From positions 1,989 to 65,988 of the forward strand of contig JAHFMX010000005.1 in the NCBI GenBank assembly GCA_023267635.1: 64,000 nucleotides of DNA. Reading direction: 5' to 3'. Positions 3,652 to 63,998 of the stretch are shown piece by piece. A program made the translations under genes and the position numbers. Below the pieces are notes generated by a model. The model was not told where the DNA came from. It did no database searches and was given only the letters and a program-made list of their open reading frames with translations. Position 1 is the stretch's first letter; each line of letters begins with the position of its first letter. Source of the stretch: a bacterium. Its GTDB lineage: Bacteria > Patescibacteriota > Minisyncoccia > Phycocordibacterales > UBA5272.

Positions 3652-4835
3652 AAAGATAGTGGTAAAGGTGACATGGCTCGTAATTTTTCAACAACAGTAA
3701 ATAGCGCTTTAACAAAATAATCACACTCCTTTTCGGTCGTCGTCTCCCCGAGCGTTATGCGAAGACTCCCGTGCATAAGAAGGGGGTCTTGATTAATTGC
3801 TTGCAATACATGAGAAACCTGCAGATCTTGGGACGAACATGCTGAACCGGTCGCAACTGCAATTCCAAGCGCATCTAACATGAGGACCATTGATTCTCCT
3901 TCAATGTCAGGTATGGAAATATGAATGTTATTTGGCAGACGCTCTTTTGGGTGACCGTTTAACACAAGGAAAGGTAATACACCTCGAAGTGACTTAAGGC
4001 ACTCATCCCGAAGCGCAGATATTCGGACCACTTCTTTTTCTTTTTTTCGTTCTACGCGAGATAGAGCTTCTTGAAACCCAACAATGTGAGGAAGACTTTC
4101 AGTGCCCGAACGGAGACCCTCTTCTTGTCCTCCTCCAAAAATAATAGCCTGCATGGCAACACTCTTTTTTCGATAGAGCACTCCTACTCCTTTAGGTCCG
4201 TAAATTTTGGAACCATTAAGTGAAAGAAGATCTACGTCAAGATCTTTAACATTAAGAGAAAGGTACCCGGCGGCCTGACACGCGTCAGTGTGAAGAATAG
4301 GGTATACCACCCCTTTTCTTTTAAAAGATAAAGCTCTTGATAAATCTTTTATAGGCTGAATCGTGCCAATTTCATTGTTTGCGTACATCACAGAGATAAG
4401 AATGGTTTTCTCGTTAATTCTTCTGATGCAGTCGTTGACGTCAATCATACCGAATGCATCCACTGGAACATGCTCTATAATGAACCCTTCTTTTGCAAGC
4501 TGTTGAGTAGCTTCCAAAACAGCTTTATGTTCAATGGCCGAAACGAGAATATGATTGCCGTGTATTTTATTAGCGCGAGCAGTTCCTAACAGCGCTAAGT
4601 TGTTTGACTCAGTTCCCGAGCCGGTAAAAATAATCTCTTCTGGTAAGGCATGGAGAACTGAAGCAACAGCACTCCTTGATTTTTCAAGAACGTATCTTGC
4701 TTTTCTCCCTAGAGAGTAAAGGGCTGACGGATTGCCGTAGCCAGATCCAAAATAGGGAAGCATCAAGTCAAGCACCTCATTAGAGGTTGGTGTTCCTGCT
4801 GCGTGGTCGAGGTAGATTGATGGTTTACTAATCAT
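3648..4835 (-). CDS. iscS: Cysteine desulfurase (IscS/NifS, class V aminotransferase)
   Basis: PLP-lysine motif SLNGSKIYGPKGVGVLY, active-site loop GSACSS; 395 aa. Confidence 0.85.
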   Translation of the reverse strand: MISKPSIYLDHAAGTPTSNEVLDLMLPYFGSGYGNPSALYSLGRKARYVLEKSRSAVASVLHALPEEIIFTGSGTESNNLALLGTARANKIHGNHILVSAIEHKAVLEATQQLAKEGFIIEHVPVDAFGMIDVNDCIRRINEKTILISVMYANNEIGTIQPIKDLSRALSFKRKGVVYPILHTDACQAAGYLSLNVKDLDVDLLSLNGSKIYGPKGVGVLYRKKSVAMQAIIFGGGQEEGLRSGTESLPHIVGFQEALSRVERKKEKEVVRISALRDECLKSLRGVLPFLVLNGHPKERLPNNIHISIPDIEGESMVLMLDALGIAVATGSACSSQDLQVSHVLQAINQDPLLMHGSLRITLGETTTEKECDYFVKALFTVVEKLRAMSPLPLSL

Positions 4836-4844
4836 GATACAAGA

Positions 4845-5534
4845 TTATCTAATTCCACAAAAAGACACATAGTGTCCCATCATTGTTTGTATTCTTGCGA
4901 ATTCTTCATCGTTGTAGGTAACTTTCTTTAAAAATTGAGGGTTGAGTATTTTTGTTGGAACAAACTTTTGCAAATAGTAATTTGCTGCCCCCTTGATTTC
5001 TCTCCCTATTTCTTCAATGTCCTCAACGGATAACATCGAACGAACAATGGTCGTACGAAACTCATACGGAATATCACTTCCCATGATTACTTCAATACTG
5101 CTTTTGATCGCGTGAATGTCTACAGGACGGGCTACGGTTTGCGAGTATTTACTAAGTGGAGACTTGATGTCCATCGCGATGTAGTCAGCCAAGTTTTCCT
5201 TTATAACCTCTTGTATAAATTCCGGATGAACGCCATTTGTGTCTAATTTAATCAGAAAGTTTCTTTGCTTCACTTCCCGCATAAATGAGATTAATTTTGG
5301 ACCATGCATCGTCGGCTCGCCTCCTGTTATTACGATGCCGTCTATCATCCCTTTCCTCTCGTCAAGAAACTTAAGGATGACGCTCTCATCAATTCGTGTC
5401 GTACATGTTTCATCAACCAGTTCCGGATTATGACAGTATGGACATCGAAATGGGCATCCAATGGTATACACCATGCATGCAATTTTCCCCGGAAAATCTA
5501 TAAGAGTAAATTTTTCAAAGCCTCCAAACTCCAT
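4845..5534 (-). CDS. nrdG: Anaerobic ribonucleoside-triphosphate reductase activating protein (radical SAM)
   Basis: GCPFRCPYCHNPELV (CxxxCxxC radical-SAM cluster motif), adjacent to nrdD. Confidence 0.8.
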   Translation of the reverse strand: MEFGGFEKFTLIDFPGKIACMVYTIGCPFRCPYCHNPELVDETCTTRIDESVILKFLDERKGMIDGIVITGGEPTMHGPKLISFMREVKQRNFLIKLDTNGVHPEFIQEVIKENLADYIAMDIKSPLSKYSQTVARPVDIHAIKSSIEVIMGSDIPYEFRTTIVRSMLSVEDIEEIGREIKGAANYYLQKFVPTKILNPQFLKKVTYNDEEFARIQTMMGHYVSFCGIR

Positions 5535-5536
5535 AC

Positions 5537-7735
5537 CTATACAGTTACTCTAATCTTAGGAACTACAACCACTTCGCTTGGCGCTGTTTCAGGCGCGTAC
5601 ATTTCCCGAATAGAATACTCGGCTTGCTTACCTTCATTCCACTGGCTTACCGGCCGCAAGTACCCAACGATACGAGAATACACTTCACATGCACTCTGGC
5701 ATGTCGGACATGTAAAATGTTCCCCTGTAATATAACCATGAGTTCCGCATACGCTGAATGTTGGCGTAATGGTAAAATAAGGCAATTTATAGTTCTCGCA
5801 CACTTTTCTGACCAAGTTGGGAATAGATCTATAGTCCGCAATTCGCTCACCCAAGAAGAGGTGAATAACCGTTCCTCCTGTATATTTTGTTTGAAGCCCG
5901 TCTTGGATATTTAACGTCTCAACAATATCTGTACTGTAGTTAACTGGAAGATGGGAGGAGTTTGTATAAAACGGTTTAGCCCCTTTATTATATTCAACCT
6001 CATTAGCAACAAGAATATTTGGATACATCTTTTTATCTCGTAACGCCAAACGAAATGATGTCCCTTCAGCGGGAGTAGCTTCAAGGTTATAGAGATTATC
6101 TGTTTCTTTTTGATATTGAATCAAGCGACTTCGCATGTGGTCAAGCGTCTCGCCGGCGAATTGCTCACCTGATTTAGTGCCTACGCTTTCACCAAAAAGG
6201 TTAAGTGTAGCCTCATTCATTCCGATTAATCCAATGGTAGAGAAATGATTCCTCCAATACTGTCCAAGTCCTTTTTTAATATTTCGCAAGTAGAACTTTG
6301 TGTATGGGTAGAGGTTCGCGTCAGTTAACTTCTCGAGCAGTTTTCGTTTGATCTCAAGGCTCTCTTTTGCGATATCCATTTGTCTATCTAATGCTTCGTA
6401 AAAATATTTTTTAGCTTCCTCAGATGAGTCTTTGTAATTGGACTTCGCCTGATAGGCTAGACGTGGCAGGTTAATTGTAACTACCCCGACCGATCCAGTA
6501 AGTGCGTTTGCACCGAAGAGTCCGCCTCCACGTCTATCTAATTCTTCCAAATCAAGCCGTAAGCGACAACACATAGATCTCGTATCTTCCGGCTTCATGT
6601 CTGATGTGACGAAATTACTAAAATAGGGAATACCATATTTAGCAGTAATTTCCCAAAGACCTTTCAGCTTGGGGTTTTCCCAATTAAAATCTTTGGTAAT
6701 ATTCACGGTAGGTATCGGGAAAGAAAACACTCTTCCTGACGAATCACCGCCCATCATTACTTCAAAAAACGCTTCATTGAACATGTCCATCTCCTTCTGA
6801 AATTCACTATATTTTTCTGCTTGTGGTTTACCCCCAATAATAACGGGAAGATCTTTGAAATTTACTGATGGGGTAAGGTCAAGTGTGATATTCGAGAACG
6901 GGGTTTGGAATCCGACACGTGTTGGTACATTCATATTAAAGACAAATTCTTGTATGGCTTGCTTAACCTCCTTCTGCGAAAGGTTGTCGTAGCGAATAAA
7001 TGGTGCAAGTAGCGTGTCGAAATTAGAAAAAGCTATAGCTCCTGCGGCTTCACCTTGCAAGGTATACATGAAATTTACCACCTGGCCGAGTGCTGTACGA
7101 AAATGTTTTGCTGGTGCCGACTCTATCTTGTCTGAAACTCCCTTAAATCCAACAGTAAGAAGATCCGTCAAATCCCAGCCCACACAATAGATTGATAACG
7201 TGCCGAGATCGTGAATATGGATATCTCCATTTTCGTATGCAGAACGAATTTCCTGTGGATAAATCTTATTGAGCCAGTATGTCTTACTAACTTCCGAGAA
7301 AATATAATTATTAAGCCCTTGAAGAGAGTACCCCATGTTACTGTTTTCTTTGACTTGCCAATCGAGCTTATCCAAATAGTTATCTACCAAACCTAGCGAC
7401 GACATTGTAGCAAACGATCGCATCTCGGCGTGCTGATCACGATACAAAATATACGCTTTTGCTGTTGCTTTATAAGAAGATATCATAAGCACATGCTCAG
7501 CCGCATCCTGTATCTGCTCGATTGATACAGTGTCTCCCAATACCGTTTTCTCTAAATAGTTAATGACTTTTTCGGCAAGTTGGACAGCCTGGAATTCGTC
7601 GTATTCTTTTGTCGCGAGCCCGGCACGCGTTAAGGCCTGGATGATTTTTCCTCCATCAAATAGCACATGAGACCCGTCTCTTTTAGTAACCACTAAAAAT
7701 TGAGATGTATTGCTAGTCGGGGTTTTGGTTTTCAT
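5537..7735 (-). CDS. nrdD: Anaerobic ribonucleoside-triphosphate reductase (class III)
   Basis: N-terminal ATP-cone (VVTKRDGSHVLFDGGKIIQALTRAG), C-terminal zinc/glycyl-radical region CPTCQSACEVYSRIVGYLRP; ORF track extends to 8038 via alt start but first ATG with ATP-cone-proximal start is 7735 (MKTKTPTS). Confidence 0.85.
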   Translation of the reverse strand: MKTKTPTSNTSQFLVVTKRDGSHVLFDGGKIIQALTRAGLATKEYDEFQAVQLAEKVINYLEKTVLGDTVSIEQIQDAAEHVLMISSYKATAKAYILYRDQHAEMRSFATMSSLGLVDNYLDKLDWQVKENSNMGYSLQGLNNYIFSEVSKTYWLNKIYPQEIRSAYENGDIHIHDLGTLSIYCVGWDLTDLLTVGFKGVSDKIESAPAKHFRTALGQVVNFMYTLQGEAAGAIAFSNFDTLLAPFIRYDNLSQKEVKQAIQEFVFNMNVPTRVGFQTPFSNITLDLTPSVNFKDLPVIIGGKPQAEKYSEFQKEMDMFNEAFFEVMMGGDSSGRVFSFPIPTVNITKDFNWENPKLKGLWEITAKYGIPYFSNFVTSDMKPEDTRSMCCRLRLDLEELDRRGGGLFGANALTGSVGVVTINLPRLAYQAKSNYKDSSEEAKKYFYEALDRQMDIAKESLEIKRKLLEKLTDANLYPYTKFYLRNIKKGLGQYWRNHFSTIGLIGMNEATLNLFGESVGTKSGEQFAGETLDHMRSRLIQYQKETDNLYNLEATPAEGTSFRLALRDKKMYPNILVANEVEYNKGAKPFYTNSSHLPVNYSTDIVETLNIQDGLQTKYTGGTVIHLFLGERIADYRSIPNLVRKVCENYKLPYFTITPTFSVCGTHGYITGEHFTCPTCQSACEVYSRIVGYLRPVSQWNEGKQAEYSIREMYAPETAPSEVVVVPKIRVTV

Positions 7736-11822: not shown

Positions 11823-13637
11823 TTAGTGAGATACTCGTCTATCAGTTGAGTATGATGAGTAGAGACTTCGTCCAAGGATAAAGATGATGAAGAGGATTGC
11901 AATAAGAGCAAGCCATTCAACAAGAGAGTTTGGAAGGAATCCTCGCTCATCTGAAGCACCAATCACCTTCTTTGAACCTGTGTCTACTTTCGCGTCTGAT
12001 GAAGATGCAACTGAACCAACAACGTATGCTGTTACTTCGTCTTCTACAGTAGTTCCTGGTACTGAATAATTCGTGTACGCAGTTGTAACCATAGACTTAC
12101 CAAGCACGGCATCCTTAGCTACTGTTCCTGTCCAATTGATACTCATTTCTCCGTATGGTGAAAGTGAAACATTTGAAACAGTAAGCACGTGAGTGATAGG
12201 ATCGTAATTTCCTGCTGAAGCATTTGTAAGAGTAATTTCCTGTGGGATAGTTACCTTTACTGTTACTCCAGTAAGCGCACTATCAGAAACGTTCTTAAGT
12301 GTAAGTTTGTAATTAACTACAGAAGAAGCTGTAAGGTTTCCTCCAACCTTTTCAATCTGAAGAGAGATAAGTTTCTGTCCGTTGTTAATAATCTCAGATG
12401 CTGACTTTGAACCTACGGTAACGTATGTACCATCAACACAAAGAACCTGGTTTGTCTTTGTTACTGTCTTAGTAACAGGAGACTTTACGATTGGTTTTAC
12501 ATACGTAACTGCTGTTGTCTTTGTAGTAAACGCTACAATCTCTCCCTTAACTACACCGTACTGGTTCTGCATTACTGCGCGACAGTAGTATGTTGTTCGT
12601 GGCTTAAGATTTGTAAGAACGTTTGAGAATGGCGCTGTTGGAGATGATCCAATGTTTGCCTTTGCTGTCTCGCGTCCAAGGTTTGATGTCTCACCGTATT
12701 CGAACCATCCAGTTGACTGTGCGCCTGAAGCGATAAGTCCGATTCCGTTACAACGAGCGCTTGTAAGAGTGATCTCAGTTGCTACTGATGTGATAACGTT
12801 ATTAAACTTAATGGTCTGTGGAGGAACGTATGGAACATAGGTGTTTCCTACGTAACATGTCTGGTTAACAGGAATACTTGTTCCGTTAGCACATACTTTG
12901 TACTGTGCAGGACAAATTGAGTTAACAGAGATTCTTGATCCATCCCAACAAAGCTGTGTAGTTACTACGGGAGCAACGACTGTACGGTTACATCCAGTTG
13001 TAGGAGACGGAAGCTGTCCGTCAGAACATACAGTGTTTGTATTTGTAGGAATAATGTTTGTACGAGTACATGATCCATTCGTCGGAGCAAAACCATCAGA
13101 ACATACTGTGTTATTAGTTACAGGGAGTGTTGTCGTCCGGTTACACCCTGTTGTTGGTGAAGGAATAGTTCCATCAGAACAACGAGTAACTGTCGTAACA
13201 GGAACTGTAGGCTGCGTTACAACTGGCTGTGTGTACACAGGTTGAGTGTATGTTGGTTGTGTATATACAGGCTGAGTATATGTAGGTTGTGTGTAGGTAT
13301 ATGAAGGGTAACTATATGATGTGCCTGTGTTATACCCAGTCCATGAAGGAGATGTGCTGTAATTAGTTGAACCATAATTAACTGTACCGTACTCTACAGA
13401 GCTGTAAGTAACACCTGTATCATATGTAGGATATATTGTTCCTGTATCATACGTTGGATACGTAGTTGACCAAGATCCTGTGTCGTATGTCGGATATGTT
13501 GTAGACCAAGAACCTGTGTCGTAGCTTGGGTAAGTTGTTGACCATGAGCCATCTTCTTGAGCAATAGCAATAGCTACTCCTGAGAGGAGATTCATTGTAA
13601 GCATTACAGCAAGCATTTTCTGAGTGATGTGTTTCAT
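11823..13637 (-). CDS. Repeat-rich cell-surface protein with signal peptide and C-terminal membrane anchor
   Basis: Signal peptide MKHITQKMLAVMLTMNLLSGVAIAIA; tandem GSWSTTYPTYDTG, YTQP(T/V) and CSDGxxPxPTTGCNRT repeats; DUF11-like beta segments; C-terminal FLPNSLVEWLALIAILFIIFILGRS hydrophobic anchor plus basic tail. Confidence 0.6.
   Translation of the reverse strand: MKHITQKMLAVMLTMNLLSGVAIAIAQEDGSWSTTYPSYDTGSWSTTYPTYDTGSWSTTYPTYDTGTIYPTYDTGVTYSSVEYGTVNYGSTNYSTSPSWTGYNTGTSYSYPSYTYTQPTYTQPVYTQPTYTQPVYTQPVVTQPTVPVTTVTRCSDGTIPSPTTGCNRTTTLPVTNNTVCSDGFAPTNGSCTRTNIIPTNTNTVCSDGQLPSPTTGCNRTVVAPVVTTQLCWDGSRISVNSICPAQYKVCANGTSIPVNQTCYVGNTYVPYVPPQTIKFNNVITSVATEITLTSARCNGIGLIASGAQSTGWFEYGETSNLGRETAKANIGSSPTAPFSNVLTNLKPRTTYYCRAVMQNQYGVVKGEIVAFTTKTTAVTYVKPIVKSPVTKTVTKTNQVLCVDGTYVTVGSKSASEIINNGQKLISLQIEKVGGNLTASSVVNYKLTLKNVSDSALTGVTVKVTIPQEITLTNASAGNYDPITHVLTVSNVSLSPYGEMSINWTGTVAKDAVLGKSMVTTAYTNYSVPGTTVEDEVTAYVVGSVASSSDAKVDTGSKKVIGASDERGFLPNSLVEWLALIAILFIIFILGRSLYSSYSTDRRVSH
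12947..13556 (-). repeat. In-frame tandem coding repeats (three repeat families) inside surface-protein gene
   Basis: Repeated 39-42-nt units encoding GSWSTTYP(T/S)YDTG x3-4, 12-15-nt units YTQP(T/V) x6, and about 120-nt units CSDG...TTGCNRT x3 visible in DNA and translation. Confidence 0.7.
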
Positions 13638-13721
13638 ATAATAATTATGGTTATATGATATGCATTATACTACACATGATTACAAAAGTCAATAGCCTTA
13701 AATAAGTTACCTCTTCAATAT

Positions 13722-13753
13722 AAAAAACACCCAGACGATTCCTCGTCTGGGTG
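13722..13753 (-). terminator. Rho-independent terminator
   Basis: Hairpin cacccagacg-attc-cgtctgggtg flanked by A-run on + strand (T-run on - strand), downstream of 13770..14516. Confidence 0.7.
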
Positions 13754-13769
13754 CATTGTCAAATGCGCG

Positions 13770-14516
13770 TCATTTCACCTGAACATGACTAAAGGTCGTG
13801 CTGGAGATGGTGCCTTTACCGTCCTTCACGCCAACCGCGATGCCGTTTTTGGCAGCAACCCGTGCATTCCACTGCTTTTCCGATTCAGCTCCAACGCGGG
13901 GTTCAACCTGAATAGCAGAGCACTGGGACGGCATCCCAGAGATAAGGCGATCCGCGTAGCAACCACGCTTGTTAGCAGCAGTTGCCTCTGGATGCACCCA
14001 GCCCCAGAACGCGCCGCCTGCTGGAGGTGGTGAAAGCACTGCCTCTTTTTGGTCAGACACAGGCTTGCGACTGTCGGCCACGTTGCCACCTTTCTTCGGC
14101 GCCTTCTTGGGCGGTGCTTTTTGCACAACAGGAACTTCCTTGCCGACACATTTTTCGCCGACGATTTTCTCCACCTCGGAGGCAGAGACGCCGAAAGTTT
14201 CAACCTTCGGGACTTTTTGCGCCGCGAGTTTCAGTTGATCGACTTCGTCCTGAAGTTTTTTCAGTTCGACCTTGTGGGCCACCTTGGCTTCCTTGCGGTC
14301 ACCCAGGTTGTCACACAAAAGAAAGACGGAAAAGAGGAACAGGAGGGCGGCCGCAATAAATGCGCCGATCGCCATCTTCTTCCACTTTTGCGTTTCCTGC
14401 TTGGATTCGCCGAGTTTGCTGTTGAGCTCGTCAGCGACAGTTTTCAAGCGGACCGAATAATCGGAATCGCTTTCGCCTTGGCCTTTTTCAAAGCCGTTCG
14501 GGTTCATGACTTGCAT
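13770..14516 (-). CDS. Bitopic membrane protein with coiled-coil and Lys/Pro-rich ectodomain, in GC-rich islet
   Basis: 248 aa; one TM (MAIGAFIAAALLFLFSVFLLC), coiled-coil KKLQDEVDQLKLAAQK, PPKKAPKK tract, C-terminal domain GAFWGWVHPE...; local GC about 57% vs about 40% background, which generates the many overlapping spurious ORFs on both strands. Confidence 0.55.
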   Translation of the reverse strand: MQVMNPNGFEKGQGESDSDYSVRLKTVADELNSKLGESKQETQKWKKMAIGAFIAAALLFLFSVFLLCDNLGDRKEAKVAHKVELKKLQDEVDQLKLAAQKVPKVETFGVSASEVEKIVGEKCVGKEVPVVQKAPPKKAPKKGGNVADSRKPVSDQKEAVLSPPPAGGAFWGWVHPEATAANKRGCYADRLISGMPSQCSAIQVEPRVGAESEKQWNARVAAKNGIAVGVKDGKGTISSTTFSHVQVK

Positions 14517-14650
14517 GAGATTTCTCCTTCAAAAAGGTTTTCAAATAAAAGAACTAGCTTCGAGTGGGCCGTGTATGCACCACGCTCTTAAGTATTAGTA
14601 TACAGTAAATTATAAAAAAGTCAATAGCTTCATTCATTATGTTTGGATAT

Positions 14651-14676
14651 AAAAAACCGACCCTGAGTAGGGTCGG
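14651..14676 (-). terminator. Rho-independent terminator
   Basis: aaaaaa + hairpin ccgaccctgagtagggtcgg, downstream of 14706..15410. Confidence 0.7.
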
Positions 14677-14705
14677 TTGCCTTCAAAAGAAAGCTTGTGG
14701 GAGAA

Positions 14706-15410
14706 TTACTCCTGAAAACGAGGGGCGTCCCCTGGCAAGCACGCGAACGTGTTGTGTTGAGGGTGTCCTTGCCAGTTGAGGCGGCCCCAGGTTTTACCTG
14801 TCCCGCAAACGGGGGCATGTCCTTGCGACATGACCTGCGAAGCCTTGCCTGTGACAAGGCCTTCTGCTTTTTGGCGAGCCTTTGCTTCACAGGTCGGGGT
14901 GTCAGCTTCCTTGGTGACGACGCCGTCAATGTTGCAGAAGACGCCGCGAGTCGAAGACTGAACACCGCCTTGGTGTCCGTAGCCAACGTTTTCGTGTTGA
15001 TGTCCTTGTGGAACCGCAACACGCTGACCTTGGTTGCTCATCATTGGGCAAAACACATTGCCGGCGAGAAAGCCGAGCAATCCGCCGCCTTCGGTGTGTT
15101 TGGCATCGTTACCATCCCGTGCTCCGAGATAGCGTCCGCCGCGTTCCACCAGTCCAGCGCAGAAACTGCTACTGCCTTGAGTTGAACCAAACGGAGCACT
15201 CGAACCGTAGTACGGTTGTGGTTGCGCGACAATAATGTTCTGACCACCGACGTGTCCACCGCTGTTTTGGGTGCACCACATGCCGTTGGTAAGAATCACC
15301 GGAGGCGAACCCGCGGGAATCAGTCCGCTGTTGGGATAGCAAGCAGCAGAAGCCGCTTGAACACCACACAGAAAAGCCAAAGCTGCGAGAGTTTTGAAAA
15401 ACGTGCTCAT
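14706..15410 (-). CDS. Secreted Cys/Gly/Gln-rich protein of unknown function, in GC-rich islet
   Basis: ATG at 15410 preceded by AAGGAG; signal peptide MSTFFKTLAALAFLCGVQAASAA; 10 Cys in mature part; GC about 57%. Confidence 0.55.
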   Translation of the reverse strand: MSTFFKTLAALAFLCGVQAASAACYPNSGLIPAGSPPVILTNGMWCTQNSGGHVGGQNIIVAQPQPYYGSSAPFGSTQGSSSFCAGLVERGGRYLGARDGNDAKHTEGGGLLGFLAGNVFCPMMSNQGQRVAVPQGHQHENVGYGHQGGVQSSTRGVFCNIDGVVTKEADTPTCEAKARQKAEGLVTGKASQVMSQGHAPVCGTGKTWGRLNWQGHPQHNTFACLPGDAPRFQE

Positions 15411-15488
15411 GACGAACTCCTTGAAATTGAAACGATTTGAAAGGGCAACTGAGCGTAGATTTAACGGAACTAATTCCACCCTATCTAG

Positions 15489-15507
15489 CATGTATACAGT
15501 ATACATG
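15489..15507. promoter_or_regulatory. Perfect 19-bp palindrome (candidate operator) in divergent intergenic region
   Basis: catgtatac-a-gtatacatg between 14706..15410 (-) and pilB (+). Confidence 0.35.
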
Positions 15508-15628
15508 AAATATAGGATTTGTCAAGTCCTTTTCTTTTATCAAACAAAGAGGCCTATCCCCTCACTTTTATTCCAAAAGCCTAGCCCCTTCACGACGTCC
15601 ACCATAAAAATAATCTAACTATAGAAGA

Positions 15629-17434
15629 TTGAGTGCTATGTGTATTTTTATGCGGTCGGGTACATGGATAGCGAAAAATATAATCGAGATGACCACATCT
15701 CTCTTTATTTTTCTGGTATATACTAATGCCATGACAATTGTCTTTGATGATGCACTCCAAAACCATAGACTTGACGAACTTCGTAAAGACGAAGAAGAGC
15801 AGCTCGTAAAAATCCTTTCTGACAAATACGGACTTCCTTATATTGATTTGCGAGGAATAGCGCCAGAACCTGACGCAATGCAATTTGTGAAAGAAGAAGA
15901 AGCGCGAGCCGCAGGATGTGTGCCTTTTAAGGTGGTTGGGCGTAAATTATATGTTGCCACTCTCTCCCCTTCTAATTCAAAATTAGAAGAACTTATTCGT
16001 CCTATTGAAACTAGGGGGTCAGAAATTATTCTCTATCTTTGTTCTCACGCGTCTCTTGAACATGTACTTTCTCGTTACGCGGATTTGAACCAATCAACAA
16101 AAGTTGAGAGTGGGATGCTTGAACTAACCAAAGAAAAGATGGTTACACTTATGGCGAGTTTCAGTAACATCGACGAGCTGCGTCAGCAATTCGATCTTCT
16201 CCTTGGTTCACCTGTGCTCTACAAAACAACACGAGTGATAGAACTCATTGTTGCTGGGGCTCTTAAGTTTGATGCGTCAGACATTCACATCGAACCAGAG
16301 GAAGAGAAAGTGCGTCTGCGGTATCGTTTAAATGGTGTGTTGGATGACATTGCTTTCTTTGATTTTGCTGCGCTTAAAAACATCACCAGTCGATTGAAGC
16401 TTCTCTCAGGACTTAAACTCTCCACAACGGCGAATGCTCAGGACGGGCGATTTAGTATTGATCTAGGAGATGTTGAGGTAGACGTTCGCGTGTCTGTTGT
16501 TCCAGGAAATTATGGTGAATCTTTCGTAATGCGTTTACTTGATCCACGACACACTGTTTCTAATCTGGATAACATTGCGTTCCCTGCACGACTCCGCGAG
16601 CTTGTTGAACACTCACTCGTTAAACCAAACGGTGTTATTTTAACTACTGGGCCAACAGGATCTGGAAAAACAACGACACTCTACGCGTTTTTACATAAGG
16701 TATATAATCCTGAAGTAAAAATTATTACGATTGAAGATCCAATCGAATATCACTTTGAAGGTATTACACAAACTCAGGTAGAGGAAGAAAAAGGATATAC
16801 ATTTCTTTCTGGTCTTCGAGCGGCGCTTCGCCAAGACCCTGACGTAATCATGGTGGGAGAAATTCGAGATGAAGACACAGCTAAAGTAGCGATTAACGCA
16901 GCCCTCACAGGACACTTGGTGCTTTCAACACTTCACACCAACAACGCTGCTGGAACTATTCCACGTTTAATTGATCTTGGCATAAATCCAAAAGTTATTG
17001 CGGGAGCGCTTTCTCTTGCACTTGCTCAGCGCCTTGTGAGAACTCTCTGTCAAGAATGTAAAGCCGCCTATGAAACAACAGAAAAAGAAGCTCGTATTAT
17101 TACGACTATTTTGGGTGATATGAAAACATCTGGTAAAGAACCTGAGATGATGGGGCATGTTCCAGCGCTCACCTACTCTATATTTAAACCAGTTGGATGT
17201 GCTAAGTGTGAAATGACAGGATACAAAGGGCGTATCGGAATCTTTGAGGCAATTGTAATGACTGAGGCTGTTGAAAAGACGCTTATTACGAATCCGAGCG
17301 AGCGAGAAGTGCGTGCGGCAGCCAAAGATCAAGGAATCCCTACCCTTCGTGAAGATGCTATAATTAAGGTACTCGAAGGTATTACTTCACTTGATGAAGT
17401 TTCCAGAGTGGTAGATCTTTATAGTGAAAGCTAA
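15629..17434 (+). CDS. pilB: Type IV pilus / type II secretion assembly ATPase (PilB/GspE family)
   Basis: GspII_E N-domain (LSDKYGLPYIDL), Walker A GPTGSGKTT, Asp box DPIEYHF, Walker B IMVGEIRD, His box GHLVLSTLHTN, tetracysteine CQEC...CAKC; track start is TTG, ATG candidates 15638/15689/15731. Confidence 0.85.
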   Translation: MSAMCIFMRSGTWIAKNIIEMTTSLFIFLVYTNAMTIVFDDALQNHRLDELRKDEEEQLVKILSDKYGLPYIDLRGIAPEPDAMQFVKEEEARAAGCVPFKVVGRKLYVATLSPSNSKLEELIRPIETRGSEIILYLCSHASLEHVLSRYADLNQSTKVESGMLELTKEKMVTLMASFSNIDELRQQFDLLLGSPVLYKTTRVIELIVAGALKFDASDIHIEPEEEKVRLRYRLNGVLDDIAFFDFAALKNITSRLKLLSGLKLSTTANAQDGRFSIDLGDVEVDVRVSVVPGNYGESFVMRLLDPRHTVSNLDNIAFPARLRELVEHSLVKPNGVILTTGPTGSGKTTTLYAFLHKVYNPEVKIITIEDPIEYHFEGITQTQVEEEKGYTFLSGLRAALRQDPDVIMVGEIRDEDTAKVAINAALTGHLVLSTLHTNNAAGTIPRLIDLGINPKVIAGALSLALAQRLVRTLCQECKAAYETTEKEARIITTILGDMKTSGKEPEMMGHVPALTYSIFKPVGCAKCEMTGYKGRIGIFEAIVMTEAVEKTLITNPSEREVRAAAKDQGIPTLREDAIIKVLEGITSLDEVSRVVDLYSES

Positions 17435-17576
17435 GCAGGATATGAGACGATTTTTGATTCCAGTAAGACTTTAGATGTGAGGCGTGACTAAGATTTTTTA
17501 CGAAGGTGTACGAAATAGTACTCCGAGAAAAAAATTGACGTCACAACAAAGCAGATAAGGTTTTAATGGAAGACAA

Positions 17577-17718
17577 AAACCCATATACCTCTAAGCAACC
17601 CCTTGGTGAAGAACGATCCTTCATAAGGATAGGCACAGAACGTAGCAAGTACGACCAGACCGTCCTCCGAATTAGAAAGTGAAAACTAGGTTTCCGATTG
17701 TTTAGAGATATATGGGTT
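17577..17718. ncRNA. Candidate structured RNA closed by a 21-bp helix
   Basis: aacccatatacctctaagcaa (17577-17597) pairs with ttgtttagagatatatgggtt (17698-17718) with 1 mismatch + 1 G-U; internal hairpins (atcctt-cat-aaggat); 380-bp non-coding gap between pilB and ruvB. Confidence 0.3.
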
Positions 17719-17816
17719 CTGACAAAGTTGTGAACTGCTTGCAATCCACTACCAGCTAATTATAGCACATAAAAAACTTTTGTCAAATCCCCTTCCTTAC
17801 CCTCAAAAAAGACCCC

Positions 17817-57536: not shown

Positions 57537-58112
57537 TTAGAAATGAACAGGTGACCAATTGCCTGTACTGGGATCTTTTCGATTCAGGAAAATGGTTGGT
57601 ATGTGAAGCGAAATCGAAGAAACTTCACCATCAGGACGCTCCTTTGGGGGAAGTTCCATGATTTTCTCGTAAAAACTGGGCTGCTCTTTCGGTGTCACTG
57701 CGGCTGTTGCGTGCATGAGGAGCGTAAAGCGGTCTGGTGGGTACTTCCACCTTTCTGGTGTGATGCTTACCCGTAAATCCTCGACCACCTCTCGCATGAT
57801 CTCGCTTGGTTCGAGCACTATTGCGCAGGCTCGCCTGTCGCGGTCGAGGTACCGACACTCCTTTGTTCGGACAGTGGCTACGGAGACCCCGTTTTCGAAA
57901 AGTTTGCAAAAACGGAGACCTTTTGCAAAACCTTCAGCGAAGTCTTCGCTTGCAAAAAACGGAGGGATCCAACTAATGTGGTCACCCAGCTTTGGCTCGT
58001 CAAATGAGATTTTGTTGTTGCGGAGTTTTTCGCGCATGCACTCAAGCATGTTTCCGAGGTTTGAATCTTCTCGGATAAGGCTTGCTACGCTGTAGAGGCT
58101 TTCAGTCTTCAT
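57537..58112 (-). CDS. 2H phosphoesterase superfamily protein (LigT/ThpR-like 2'-5' RNA ligase / cyclic phosphodiesterase)
   Basis: Two H-x-T/S-x motifs (DHISW, MHATA) at appropriate spacing in a 191-aa protein; GC-elevated. Confidence 0.45.
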   Translation of the reverse strand: MKTESLYSVASLIREDSNLGNMLECMREKLRNNKISFDEPKLGDHISWIPPFFASEDFAEGFAKGLRFCKLFENGVSVATVRTKECRYLDRDRRACAIVLEPSEIMREVVEDLRVSITPERWKYPPDRFTLLMHATAAVTPKEQPSFYEKIMELPPKERPDGEVSSISLHIPTIFLNRKDPSTGNWSPVHF

Positions 58113-63185: not shown

Positions 63186-63998
63186 TCACTTCCCTTTGAT
63201 TCGAGTGTTCATAAAAACAACCACCGAAACAAGGAAAAGGATGAAAGAAGCCGTCAATACTGCTTCTGCGACTGGAATTGCTGCGCCTTGAATGTTGATG
63301 AGTGTTCCTGAAAGAGAAGAAATCCCTACAAAGAGAAGACCTATCAAAAGAAGCAGCATCGACCAGCCAAACAAAGCACTATCCCAGCCCCACGTTCCCG
63401 AAAGGAGCTTAGACAGAAGGCCTGCGATTCCACCGATTGCCCACACGGCTAGCCGTACACCGAGTGCGGCGAGTTTTTGTACCGCCCACACAAAGCCAGC
63501 AACCAATTTCCTGATACAAAACCAAATCAGACTTCCTACAGCACCCCATCCGTTACACAGGGTGATCGTTGCCATAAGTGCCGATATAGCAAAAGCACCA
63601 AGGATTACGACGTCATATTCGAATGCCACGACGTGGAACATTCCATAGAGGGACAGTCCAAGCCAGTAGGCTTTCCAGTGATCAACAACATGCTGGGCGC
63701 CCAAGAAGTGAGCGATAGAGAACCCAGCAGTCAGAAGAATCGCTAGAAAAGCCGCTTCTGCCCACTGTTTGCTTTCGTATCCGATTGCAAGTCCAGTGAA
63801 GAGAAGGCAGAAACAAAAGCCAATAATCGCAAGCGTACCTGCAACATTTCCTTTTGCTTTCTGCCACAGTTTCTGCGCAGGCGGGCCAGCGCGTTGTGCG
63901 CCGACTTGTGCTGCACCGAGAACTCGCCCCCAACCTTGAAAAAGGAAGAGGGCAGTTATTCCCGTAAGCACCAGTGCCACAATGGCAATTGCCGGCAC
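63186..63998 (-). CDS. Polytopic membrane protein of unknown function (GC-rich islet)
   Basis: 270 aa, about 8 predicted TM helices, Trp/Gly/Ala-rich, GC about 55%. Confidence 0.5.
   Translation of the reverse strand: MPAIAIVALVLTGITALFLFQGWGRVLGAAQVGAQRAGPPAQKLWQKAKGNVAGTLAIIGFCFCLLFTGLAIGYESKQWAEAAFLAILLTAGFSIAHFLGAQHVVDHWKAYWLGLSLYGMFHVVAFEYDVVILGAFAISALMATITLCNGWGAVGSLIWFCIRKLVAGFVWAVQKLAALGVRLAVWAIGGIAGLLSKLLSGTWGWDSALFGWSMLLLLIGLLFVGISSLSGTLINIQGAAIPVAEAVLTASFILFLVSVVVFMNTRIKGK

Follow-up and report, generated by a model that had tools for sequence, protein, structure and literature searches.

A polymorphic mosaic surface-protein locus with a stable GC-rich composition in Patescibacteria

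The GC-rich islet and its two genes

The DNA analysed is a stretch of 64,000 nucleotides (nt), hereafter the window, from contig JAHFMX010000005.1 of a patescibacterial genome assembly (GCA_023267635.1). The element under study is an islet of high guanine-plus-cytosine (GC) content which holds two genes, both read from the minus strand. Gene A, in slot 1, runs from 15410 to 14706 and encodes 234 amino acids (aa), and gene B, in slot 2, runs from 14516 to 13770 and encodes 248 aa (all coordinates are window positions). The locus is a polymorphic mosaic surface-protein locus on a glycine-zipper scaffold, and its novelty lies in two undescribed mini-domains and in a stable GC-rich composition.

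The mean GC of the window is 0.417 (standard deviation 0.045, 200-nt windows), and the only runs longer than 350 nt with a GC of at least 0.52 are those at 13751-14451 and 14651-15401. In windows of 300 nt, values of 0.53-0.59 (13800-14399) and 0.56-0.58 (14700-15299) are separated by 0.42 in the spacer between the genes and bordered by 0.36-0.39 immediately outside. The excess is located at the codon level. Gene A has a GC of 0.565 and a GC at third codon positions (GC3) of 0.545, and the respective values of gene B are 0.542 and 0.602, against a GC3 of about 0.29-0.35 in the neighboring genes. GC3 is high across both whole coding sequences (CDSs) from the first codons on, and the three intergenic spacers show a GC of 0.33-0.37. 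In detail, it is mainly the C-ending codons that increase (C at third positions from 0.17 to 0.34, G from 0.17 to 0.24); ATA, CTA, TTA, AGA, AGG, CGA, and GTA are absent or avoided, and GAA and CAA are kept. Overlapping open reading frames (ORFs) are numerous in all frames across the islet. Thus, the GC jump and the dense spurious ORFs, both described earlier from the letters of the DNA (hereafter the sequence-only reading), were confirmed.

Sharp compositional edges and ORFs in all frames would also be compatible with an assembly chimera, or with GC-rich structured noncoding RNA genes misread as ORFs. However, an independent Logan assembly (L008; L-numbers are labels of fetched relative loci or assemblies) matches the window at 100% over 15523..13278, and the gene order is seen again in more than 10 independent assemblies. 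These two observations exclude a chimera. As for RNA genes, nothing credible was found in the islet among known RNA genes and Rfam families, the sole tRNA of the window being located at 2268-2340, and the products are conserved at the protein level, with ratios of nonsynonymous to synonymous substitution rates (dN/dS) well below 1. The probability left to either artifact is practically negligible.

Protein A begins with a predicted signal peptide of the signal peptidase I (SPase I) type (aa 1-22, AASA|AC, with cleavage after ASA), and it contains no lipobox. The signal peptide is followed by a small hairpin between Cys24 and Cys46, a Q/P linker, a region bracketed by Cys84 and Cys121, the motif NxxGQRVxVQQ, a Q-rich linker, and the C-terminal module CT-I. 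The latter (14709..14948, minus strand; aa ~155-234) carries Cys159/174 and Cys202/224 and follows the pattern GVFCNIDGxVTKE...C.AKA..KAE / C..GKTW..LNWPGHPQH...CLP (alignment A6). The sequence-only reading had proposed a secreted, Gly/Gln-rich protein with 10 Cys; the secretion and the richness in Cys, Gly, and Gln are retained, but the Cys residues are nine, and eight after cleavage of the signal peptide.

The Cys-bracketed region connects protein A to the glycine zipper 2TM family PF05433, which is matched by 13 of the 20 A-family members (alignment A4; best E 1.9e-7). The matching region of these relatives aligns to aa 84-121 of the window protein, and the top match of the family profile in the PDB is SlyB (7ojf, E=0.032). 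AlphaFold2 (AF2) places helices at aa 83-99 and 103-127, that is, a helical hairpin at aa 83-127, with a predicted confidence (pLDDT) of ~60 in this region; the first helix is charged (ERGGRYLGARDG) and the second contains GGGLLGFLAGN. When the hairpin was compared by Foldseek with those of SlyB, TraT, and MceA (microcin E492), all matches had E>1. Similarly to the proteins of PF05433 (Rick_17kDa_Anti, with SlyB, YcfJ, and Pcp of Escherichia coli), the A family has a central Cys-bracketed region rich in G-x3-G that is predicted to be a helical hairpin. On the other hand, unlike SlyB and YcfJ, the copy in the window is degenerate and below threshold, the signal is of the SPase I type and not a lipobox, and an additional N-terminal hairpin and C-terminal disulfide modules are present. 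The organism also belongs to the candidate phyla radiation (CPR), whose bacteria are presumed to be without an outer membrane.

Protein B consists of an acidic cytoplasmic N-terminus, the sequence KWKK, one transmembrane (TM) helix (aa ~47-68; the Kyte-Doolittle profile peaks only once, at aa 50, with 2.73), a coiled coil, the motif VGEKC(123)xGK with a conserved lone Cys at position 123, a Pro/Lys linker, and a C-terminal domain named here FWGW. In three homologues, the TM anchor is swapped for a lipobox, which indicates that all of B past the anchor is extracytoplasmic. The earlier description of a bitopic membrane protein that contains a coiled coil and ends in a domain of no recognised type holds.

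The FWGW domain (13773..14021, minus strand) comprises ~65-85 aa with a conserved Cys pair and is described by the pattern [FL]WG[WY]..P.A[ST]..N[PK]..C....I.G.P..CS.V.V.P...GE[ST]E..W..R... (alignments A5 and A7). Its AF2 model is a small domain of the order beta-hairpin/beta/beta/alpha, with a pLDDT of 79-83 in the core. Searches for fold relatives in the PDB and BFVD returned none, and neither the two FWGW profiles nor that of CT-I (A6) gave any significant match against the PDB. The two domains are not detectably related to each other (hhalign probability 0.2%). FWGW and CT-I are at least two new small domains, predicted to be extracytoplasmic.

Both genes are orphans in the sense of the sequence-only reading, since very few homologues exist. 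The first search retrieved 7 homologues of A and 10 of B among 5.8 billion clusters. The A family amounts to 20 representatives in the 5.8 billion clusters and the B family to 54 representatives in 1.84 billion clusters by exhaustive search with hidden Markov models. A scan of genome contigs with the B profile found nothing, and the profile scan of metagenome contigs added one short locus.

Each gene has its own regulatory elements. The promoter of gene A (TTGACA-16-TATACT; 15498..15525, minus strand, -10 box at 15503-15498) is, like that of gene B, close to the sigma-70 consensus; it shows 11 of 12 matches, and its core (-35/-10; ACAAA…TGTATACT) does not vary among 8 related loci. A palindrome with 18-nt arms of 83% complementarity (15480-15516) overlaps this promoter, with its center beside the -10 box, and could possibly serve as an operator of a shared regulator. 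The conserved 5′ leader of ~80 nt (15411..15492, minus strand) includes a small GGAAUUAGUUCC hairpin and a ribosome-binding site (RBS) AAGGAG at 15422-15417. Its cross-species conservation, which extends out to L001, exceeds that of the CDS, and its predicted structure is weak (-6.5 kcal/mol) and limited to the small hairpin. An intrinsic terminator with a 10-bp stem, six GC pairs, and a T-run ends the unit at 14647..14678 (minus strand).

Gene B is preceded by the promoter TTGACT-16-TATACT (14597..14624, minus strand, 10 of 12 consensus matches) and by AAGGAG at 14529-14524 (minus strand), and is followed by a terminator with a 12-bp stem, seven GC pairs, and a T-run (13727..13754, minus strand). 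The hexamer GTATAC, which is found in the promoter of gene A, is present again at the -10 of gene B. A 16-nt motif, GCTATTGACTTTT.TA, is common to the promoter of gene B and that of the next gene downstream, BIG (13681-13696). As read from the sequence, AAGGAG lies 6-7 nt 5′ of the ATG in both genes. The strong RBS and the clean terminators noticed at first were thus found for each gene, and the two genes form separate transcription units. The most conserved parts of the locus are regulatory, above all the promoter core and the leader of slot 1, and the promoter/leader type of gene B travels with the type of its N-terminal scaffold.

The public model of gene A (266 aa, P0001) is over-extended N-terminally by 32 codons. 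It starts at an ATG at 15506, which abuts the upstream edge of the -10 box and so precedes the predicted transcription start. Judging from the homologues, which it matches, the true start is the ATG at 15410. The homologue in L001 is over-extended in a similar way in its JGI model (P0002).

The locus in related genomes

The closest public genomes are metagenome-assembled genomes of Patescibacteria/CPR, labelled as Nomurabacteria, Saccharibacteria, or Parcubacteria. The comparison covered 12 fetched loci and one gene map without DNA, whose PilB proteins are between 99% and about 69% identical to that of the window. Eleven of them carry, in the same place, a GC-rich secreted/membrane pair or the one gene of it that survives. 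In loci with both sides assembled, a divergent PilB gene is followed by slot 1, slot 2, the gene of a large repeat-rich surface protein (BIG), TsaE, and PolA. The PilB-like ATPase of type IV pili or type II secretion systems (15737..17434, plus strand) is the constant left border wherever it was assembled. Every member of the A and B families which could be traced to a contig was found at this locus, and homologues of A and B co-occur on contigs. In the window, the neighbors are housekeeping genes, namely those for PolA, TsaE, the PilB-type ATPase, RuvB, RuvC, tyrosyl-tRNA synthetase, a class A penicillin-binding protein, and others.

The same site remains GC-rich even when its content belongs partly to other families. 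For instance, in L009, L010/L011, and L013 (from species-representative genomes, with PilB at only 69-72% identity), two GC-rich genes occupy it, and their small products are secreted proteins, lipoproteins, or membrane proteins. Across the 12 loci, the slots have a GC of 0.48-0.66 and a GC3 of 0.34-0.76, and the flanks a GC of 0.38-0.51 and a GC3 of 0.25-0.59. The pair is absent from L016, the sole high-GC relative fetched (66% GC), where unrelated genes occupy positions 4000-6000.

Close relatives differ strongly within the slots. In L014, a species representative of the genus, the PilB protein is 99% identical and the head in slot 2 is a different one. Between the window and its sister species, PolA, PilB, and RuvB share 97-99% of their protein and 85-90% of their DNA sequence; protein A is shared in the N-terminal half only (67-73% aa identity) and the head of B is unrelated. 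The BIG protein (604 aa; 11823..13692, minus strand, including its own promoter at 13692-13664) is only 73% identical in sister species, where the flanks are at 97-99%, and its GC3 is normal (0.29). It has a signal peptide, YPTYDTGSWSTT-type tandem repeats, Cys-bracketed Thr-rich repeats, DUF11, and a C-terminal TM anchor.

The differences have the form of whole modules. Within the A family, the scaffold carries at least three unrelated C-terminal types, and N-terminal scaffolds and C-terminal types are found in all combinations. The same is true for B, of which all four combinations of N-terminal scaffold and head exist. In detail, the alpha scaffold (MQVMNPNGFEKG…) bears an FWGW head in the window and L088 and a CT-II-like head in L091, and the beta scaffold (MSD/MTD…) bears FWGW in L001 and the CT-II-like head in L005 and L014. 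FWGW heads are placed not only on B-type scaffolds but also on A-type scaffolds, which consist of a signal peptide and a glycine zipper.

The mosaic becomes visible when the window is compared with L088 in sliding segments of 60 nt. PilB shows 87-97% identity, the N-terminal two thirds of A are unrelated, and CT-I is at 90-98%. From the terminator of A to the leader of B the identity is 80-92%, it drops to about 65% in the N-terminal part of B, and it rises to 92-100% in FWGW. The boundaries between these modules are sharp. Synonymous divergence (dS) changes accordingly, with 0.16 in CT-I (where dN is 0) and 0.155 in FWGW (dN/dS 0.20), and with 0.41-0.69 in PilB and 0.67-1.24 in the N-terminal part of B (dN/dS 0.26-0.45). 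Overall, the C-terminal modules show a dS of 0.155-0.175 and a dN/dS of 0-0.2, and they are under purifying selection where orthologous. Mosaic structure together with purifying selection on the heads shows that the diversity comes from the replacement of modules and not from point-mutational diversification.

Contigs of several metagenome assemblies break inside the islet (L002-L004, L088, L091, and L013), which is the outcome expected from population heterogeneity at the locus.

Origin of the islet and of its base composition

The islet has the atypical base composition and codon usage by which genomic islands are recognised, and the sequence-only reading took it for a horizontally acquired cassette. 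This proposal is contradicted by the syntenic GC-rich homologues or analogues in related low-GC genomes, the observation that had been named beforehand as speaking against acquisition. The atypical composition and codon usage, the doubling of C-ending codons, and the orphan status of both genes would suit a recent import, in which some unrelated donor of high GC had supplied both genes as a foreign cassette. On the contrary, the pair is syntenic and GC-rich even in relatives whose PilB is only about 70% identical, its promoters, leaders, and terminators look native and are conserved, and both families are confined to the locus. Neither mobility genes nor a tRNA target nor flanking repeats were found at the islet, the sole repeat being the 16-nt promoter motif. 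Searches in PHROGs, PADLOC, INPHARED phages, PLSDB plasmids, and IMG/VR revealed no phage, plasmid, viral, or defense relatives. Since signs of amelioration are missing as well, a recent foreign import is very improbable.

Amelioration was approached through the polarity of substitutions at third positions, by parsimony in three-taxon comparisons of three independent gene/lineage sets. In the slots, 60 changes from A/T to G/C (W->S) and 46 in the opposite direction (S->W) were counted. The implied equilibrium GC3 is 0.55-0.62, compared with a current GC3 of 0.47-0.56 in the same trios and an equilibrium of 0.30-0.52 for the flanks by the same method. The share of S->W changes is 43%, and about 61% would be expected under a flank-like process (binomial p=3e-4). 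The GC-richness of the islet is a stable trait at its own compositional equilibrium, and no amelioration is seen.

A different source of GC would be a shared allele pool, in which modules recombine among genomes of the clade, the poorest at about 37% GC and the richest above 60%, and are acquired repeatedly, from close relatives only; in low-GC members they would then look GC-rich. Several observations are in favor of such a pool. The C-terminal module of A is more similar between the window and L088 (97% overall, 90-98% per 60 nt) than the adjacent PilB fragment (92%), and the flanks exceed the C-terminal modules in dS by a factor of 2-4. Moreover, the clade offers backgrounds of 0.39-0.51 GC and one relative of 0.66, and the slots remain around 0.55-0.62 on any background. 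However, the slots do not fall below the background even in L093, the GC-richest carrier (background 0.51), and the sole high-GC relative fetched lacks the pair. The N-terminal scaffold of B, which is apparently inherited vertically (89% DNA identity to L089, similar to the flanks), is equally rich in GC3 (0.60-0.77), and the excess of S->W changes that should follow import is not seen. An allele pool of this kind is unlikely, but it deserves to be kept in mind.

Translational optimisation was considered as a cause of the high GC3 and rejected. The lowest GC3 values of the window (0.26-0.31) belong to the genes for NusA, pyrophosphatase, and trigger factor, which are assumed to be well expressed, so the shift of the islet is opposite to any trend of translational selection.

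The foremost candidate cause is an enrichment in GC linked to recombination, or else selection acting on synonymous sites, at a hotspot of exchange. GC enrichment associated with recombination is reported to occur in bacterial genes, reportedly by Lassalle in 2015 and by Bobay & Ochman in 2017. The islet resembles these cases in its higher GC and its evident recombination; it differs in that the adjacent, variable BIG gene shows no enrichment. The effect in the islet, of +20-45 GC3 points in two CDSs only, is also far above the size known to be usual for such enrichment. A positive correlation between GC and the ratio of recombination to mutation (r/m) exists in 82% of species, and its cause is debated (Torrance et al. 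2024, PMC11879095). In this debate on how recombination raises bacterial GC, the islet offers a compact natural test case. Furthermore, compositional islands are routinely read as recent transfers, and an islet which is old, conserved in position, and at its own equilibrium calls for caution in the calling of islands.

Co-variation of the heads and possible function

The two slots do not vary independently. Six loci have a full CT-I in slot 1, and all six have a canonical FWGW in slot 2 (the window, L001, L088, L093, and contigs of 3.9 and 127 kb). Loci with CT-II, CT-III, or other ends in slot 1 have other heads in slot 2, and the canonical FWGW is absent wherever a full CT-I is absent. In L089, where half of CT-I is duplicated, the FWGW is of a divergent type. 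In the comparison of the window with L088, both heads have a low dS and the intervening segment does not. This co-variation suggests that the two heads act as a cognate pair.

We propose that the islet is a lineage-specific, fixed-position expression site for reshuffled, cognate, surface-displayed modules, a reading that we consider evenly balanced between right and wrong. Its two slots are transcribed independently, from AT-rich promoters that are conserved together with the leaders and terminators, and they carry GC-rich modular CDSs for extracytoplasmic proteins. Protein A would be secreted through the Sec pathway, with the SlyB/YcfJ-type glycine-zipper hairpin probably tethering or oligomerising it at the membrane, and would display the small disulfide-bonded C-terminal modules. 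Protein B, anchored in the membrane (by a lipid in some relatives) and possibly a dimer linked through Cys123, would present its disulfide-bonded FWGW head on a coiled-coil stalk. Homologous recombination between related species swaps whole modules, both N-terminal scaffolds and C-terminal heads. The paired heads would probably mediate cell-cell contact, in the sense of host or partner recognition, or of attachment by an episymbiont.

Several points weigh against this proposal. The window copy of A matches no Pfam family at E<=1 and its zipper is degenerate, and the AF2 confidence is modest (pLDDT 58 for A and 68 for the head of B), as the models derive from shallow alignments. The islet was not seen in L012 within the 900 bp assembled upstream of PilB, where the contig ends and an ORF of 163 aa with normal GC is located. 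The adjacency to PilB may be a coincidence, and no further pilus genes flank PilB. Because BIG is variable and has a normal GC3, variability or recombination alone is no obvious explanation of the GC-richness. The co-variation counts are not phylogenetically independent, and the polarity counts are small and come from parsimony on alignments of fast-evolving genes. Finally, a role of A and B in contact with a host or another cell, most likely as it appears, is deduced entirely from the sequences.

The arrangement resembles polymorphic toxin and contact-dependent inhibition (CDI) loci. In CdiA-CT/CdiI, Rhs, MafB, and the glycine-zipper bacteriocins CdzC/D of Caulobacter, C-termini are swappable, the adjacent gene co-varies, and the polymorphism is at a fixed locus. 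The islet has in common with them the variable C-terminal types on a conserved scaffold, the co-varying adjacent gene B, and the strong polymorphism. It is distinct in that the N-terminal scaffolds are swapped too, the C-terminal modules are tiny and disulfide-bonded, and no toxin or immunity domain is recognisable. Also, the partner B is a stalked surface protein able to carry the same heads, and each gene has its own promoter and terminator.

These similarities raise the question of whether A is a secreted glycine-zipper toxin, membrane-active or contact-dependent, whose C-terminal module sets the specificity, with B as membrane-bound protector or receptor. A modular N-terminus with a swapped C-terminus and a co-varying downstream gene is reminiscent of polymorphic toxin systems, and glycine zippers are known from membrane-active toxins. 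In addition, one slot-1 relative has weak, sub-threshold matches to Bacteriocin_IIc and PT-VENN, and the hairpin of A has weak structural matches (E>1) to microcin E492 and SlyB. However, families of toxins, pre-toxins, secretion systems, and immunity proteins were undetected in Pfam, NCBIfam, PADLOC, PHROGs, and the PDB profile and fold searches. The C-terminal modules, with only 40-80 aa and disulfide bonds, are closer to binding modules than to enzymes. B would hold its variable domain on a stalk at the cell exterior, an uncommon design for an immunity protein, and the genes are separate transcription units. Moreover, the presence of the same FWGW head on both scaffolds is hard to reconcile with fixed roles of toxin and antidote. 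A toxin is thus a rather unlikely explanation. The sequence-only reading had mentioned a possible toxin/effector-partner pair; the partnership agrees with the co-varying C-terminal modules, and the toxin part is neither confirmed nor refuted. No toxin, pre-toxin, or immunity-like protein was recognised.

Fixed expression sites with a conserved promoter and leader, whose coding content is replaced by recombination, are known from pilE/pilS of Neisseria and vlsE of Borrelia. The islet likewise keeps its promoter and leader while the coding content is exchanged. Unlike in these systems, no silent donor cassettes were found elsewhere in the 64-kb window by tblastn and blastn, and exchange apparently takes place between genomes rather than inside a single one. 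No reverse transcriptase was present among the ~30 window ORFs scanned, a scan that was not a systematic search for a diversity-generating retroelement.

A more far-reaching form of the proposed expression site would be a co-evolving two-component surface recognition device which sets the host or kin specificity of a CPR episymbiont. In this device, the mini-domains FWGW, CT-I, CT-II, and CT-III would be reassorted between species, and the GC would be actively maintained, either by a recombination-driven GC bias or by selection on synonymous sites. In this full form the idea is doubtful. If true, the islet would represent an unusually strong and clean case of a bacterial locus with its own compositional equilibrium. 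The host-recognition molecules of CPR/Patescibacteria are largely unknown, as a passage of PMC11623550 puts it, and the islet is a candidate specificity determinant in these bacteria.

Apart from the islet, four more orphan ORFs of the window show a raised GC3 (0.46-0.55 vs about 0.33) and no Pfam family, namely 15-404, 1432-1938, 57537-58112, and 63186-63998, all on the minus strand. One of them is a multi-TM protein, and another, of 191 aa, is cytoplasmic-looking, has its own terminator, and was found with its exact sequence on just two contigs. In this genome, GC-rich orphans may form a class that is not confined to one region.

In the gap between PilB and RuvB (17560-17786, minus strand), a perfect sigma-70 promoter (TTGACA-16 with TG-TATAAT, 12 of 12 matches) points into the gap. 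Downstream of this promoter lie about 190 nt with a minimum free energy of -61 kcal/mol (z -4.2 vs shuffles), a long closing stem, and a U-run, with no match in Rfam. The predicted structure is a candidate small RNA that the annotation lacks, and its shape recalls that of 6S RNA.

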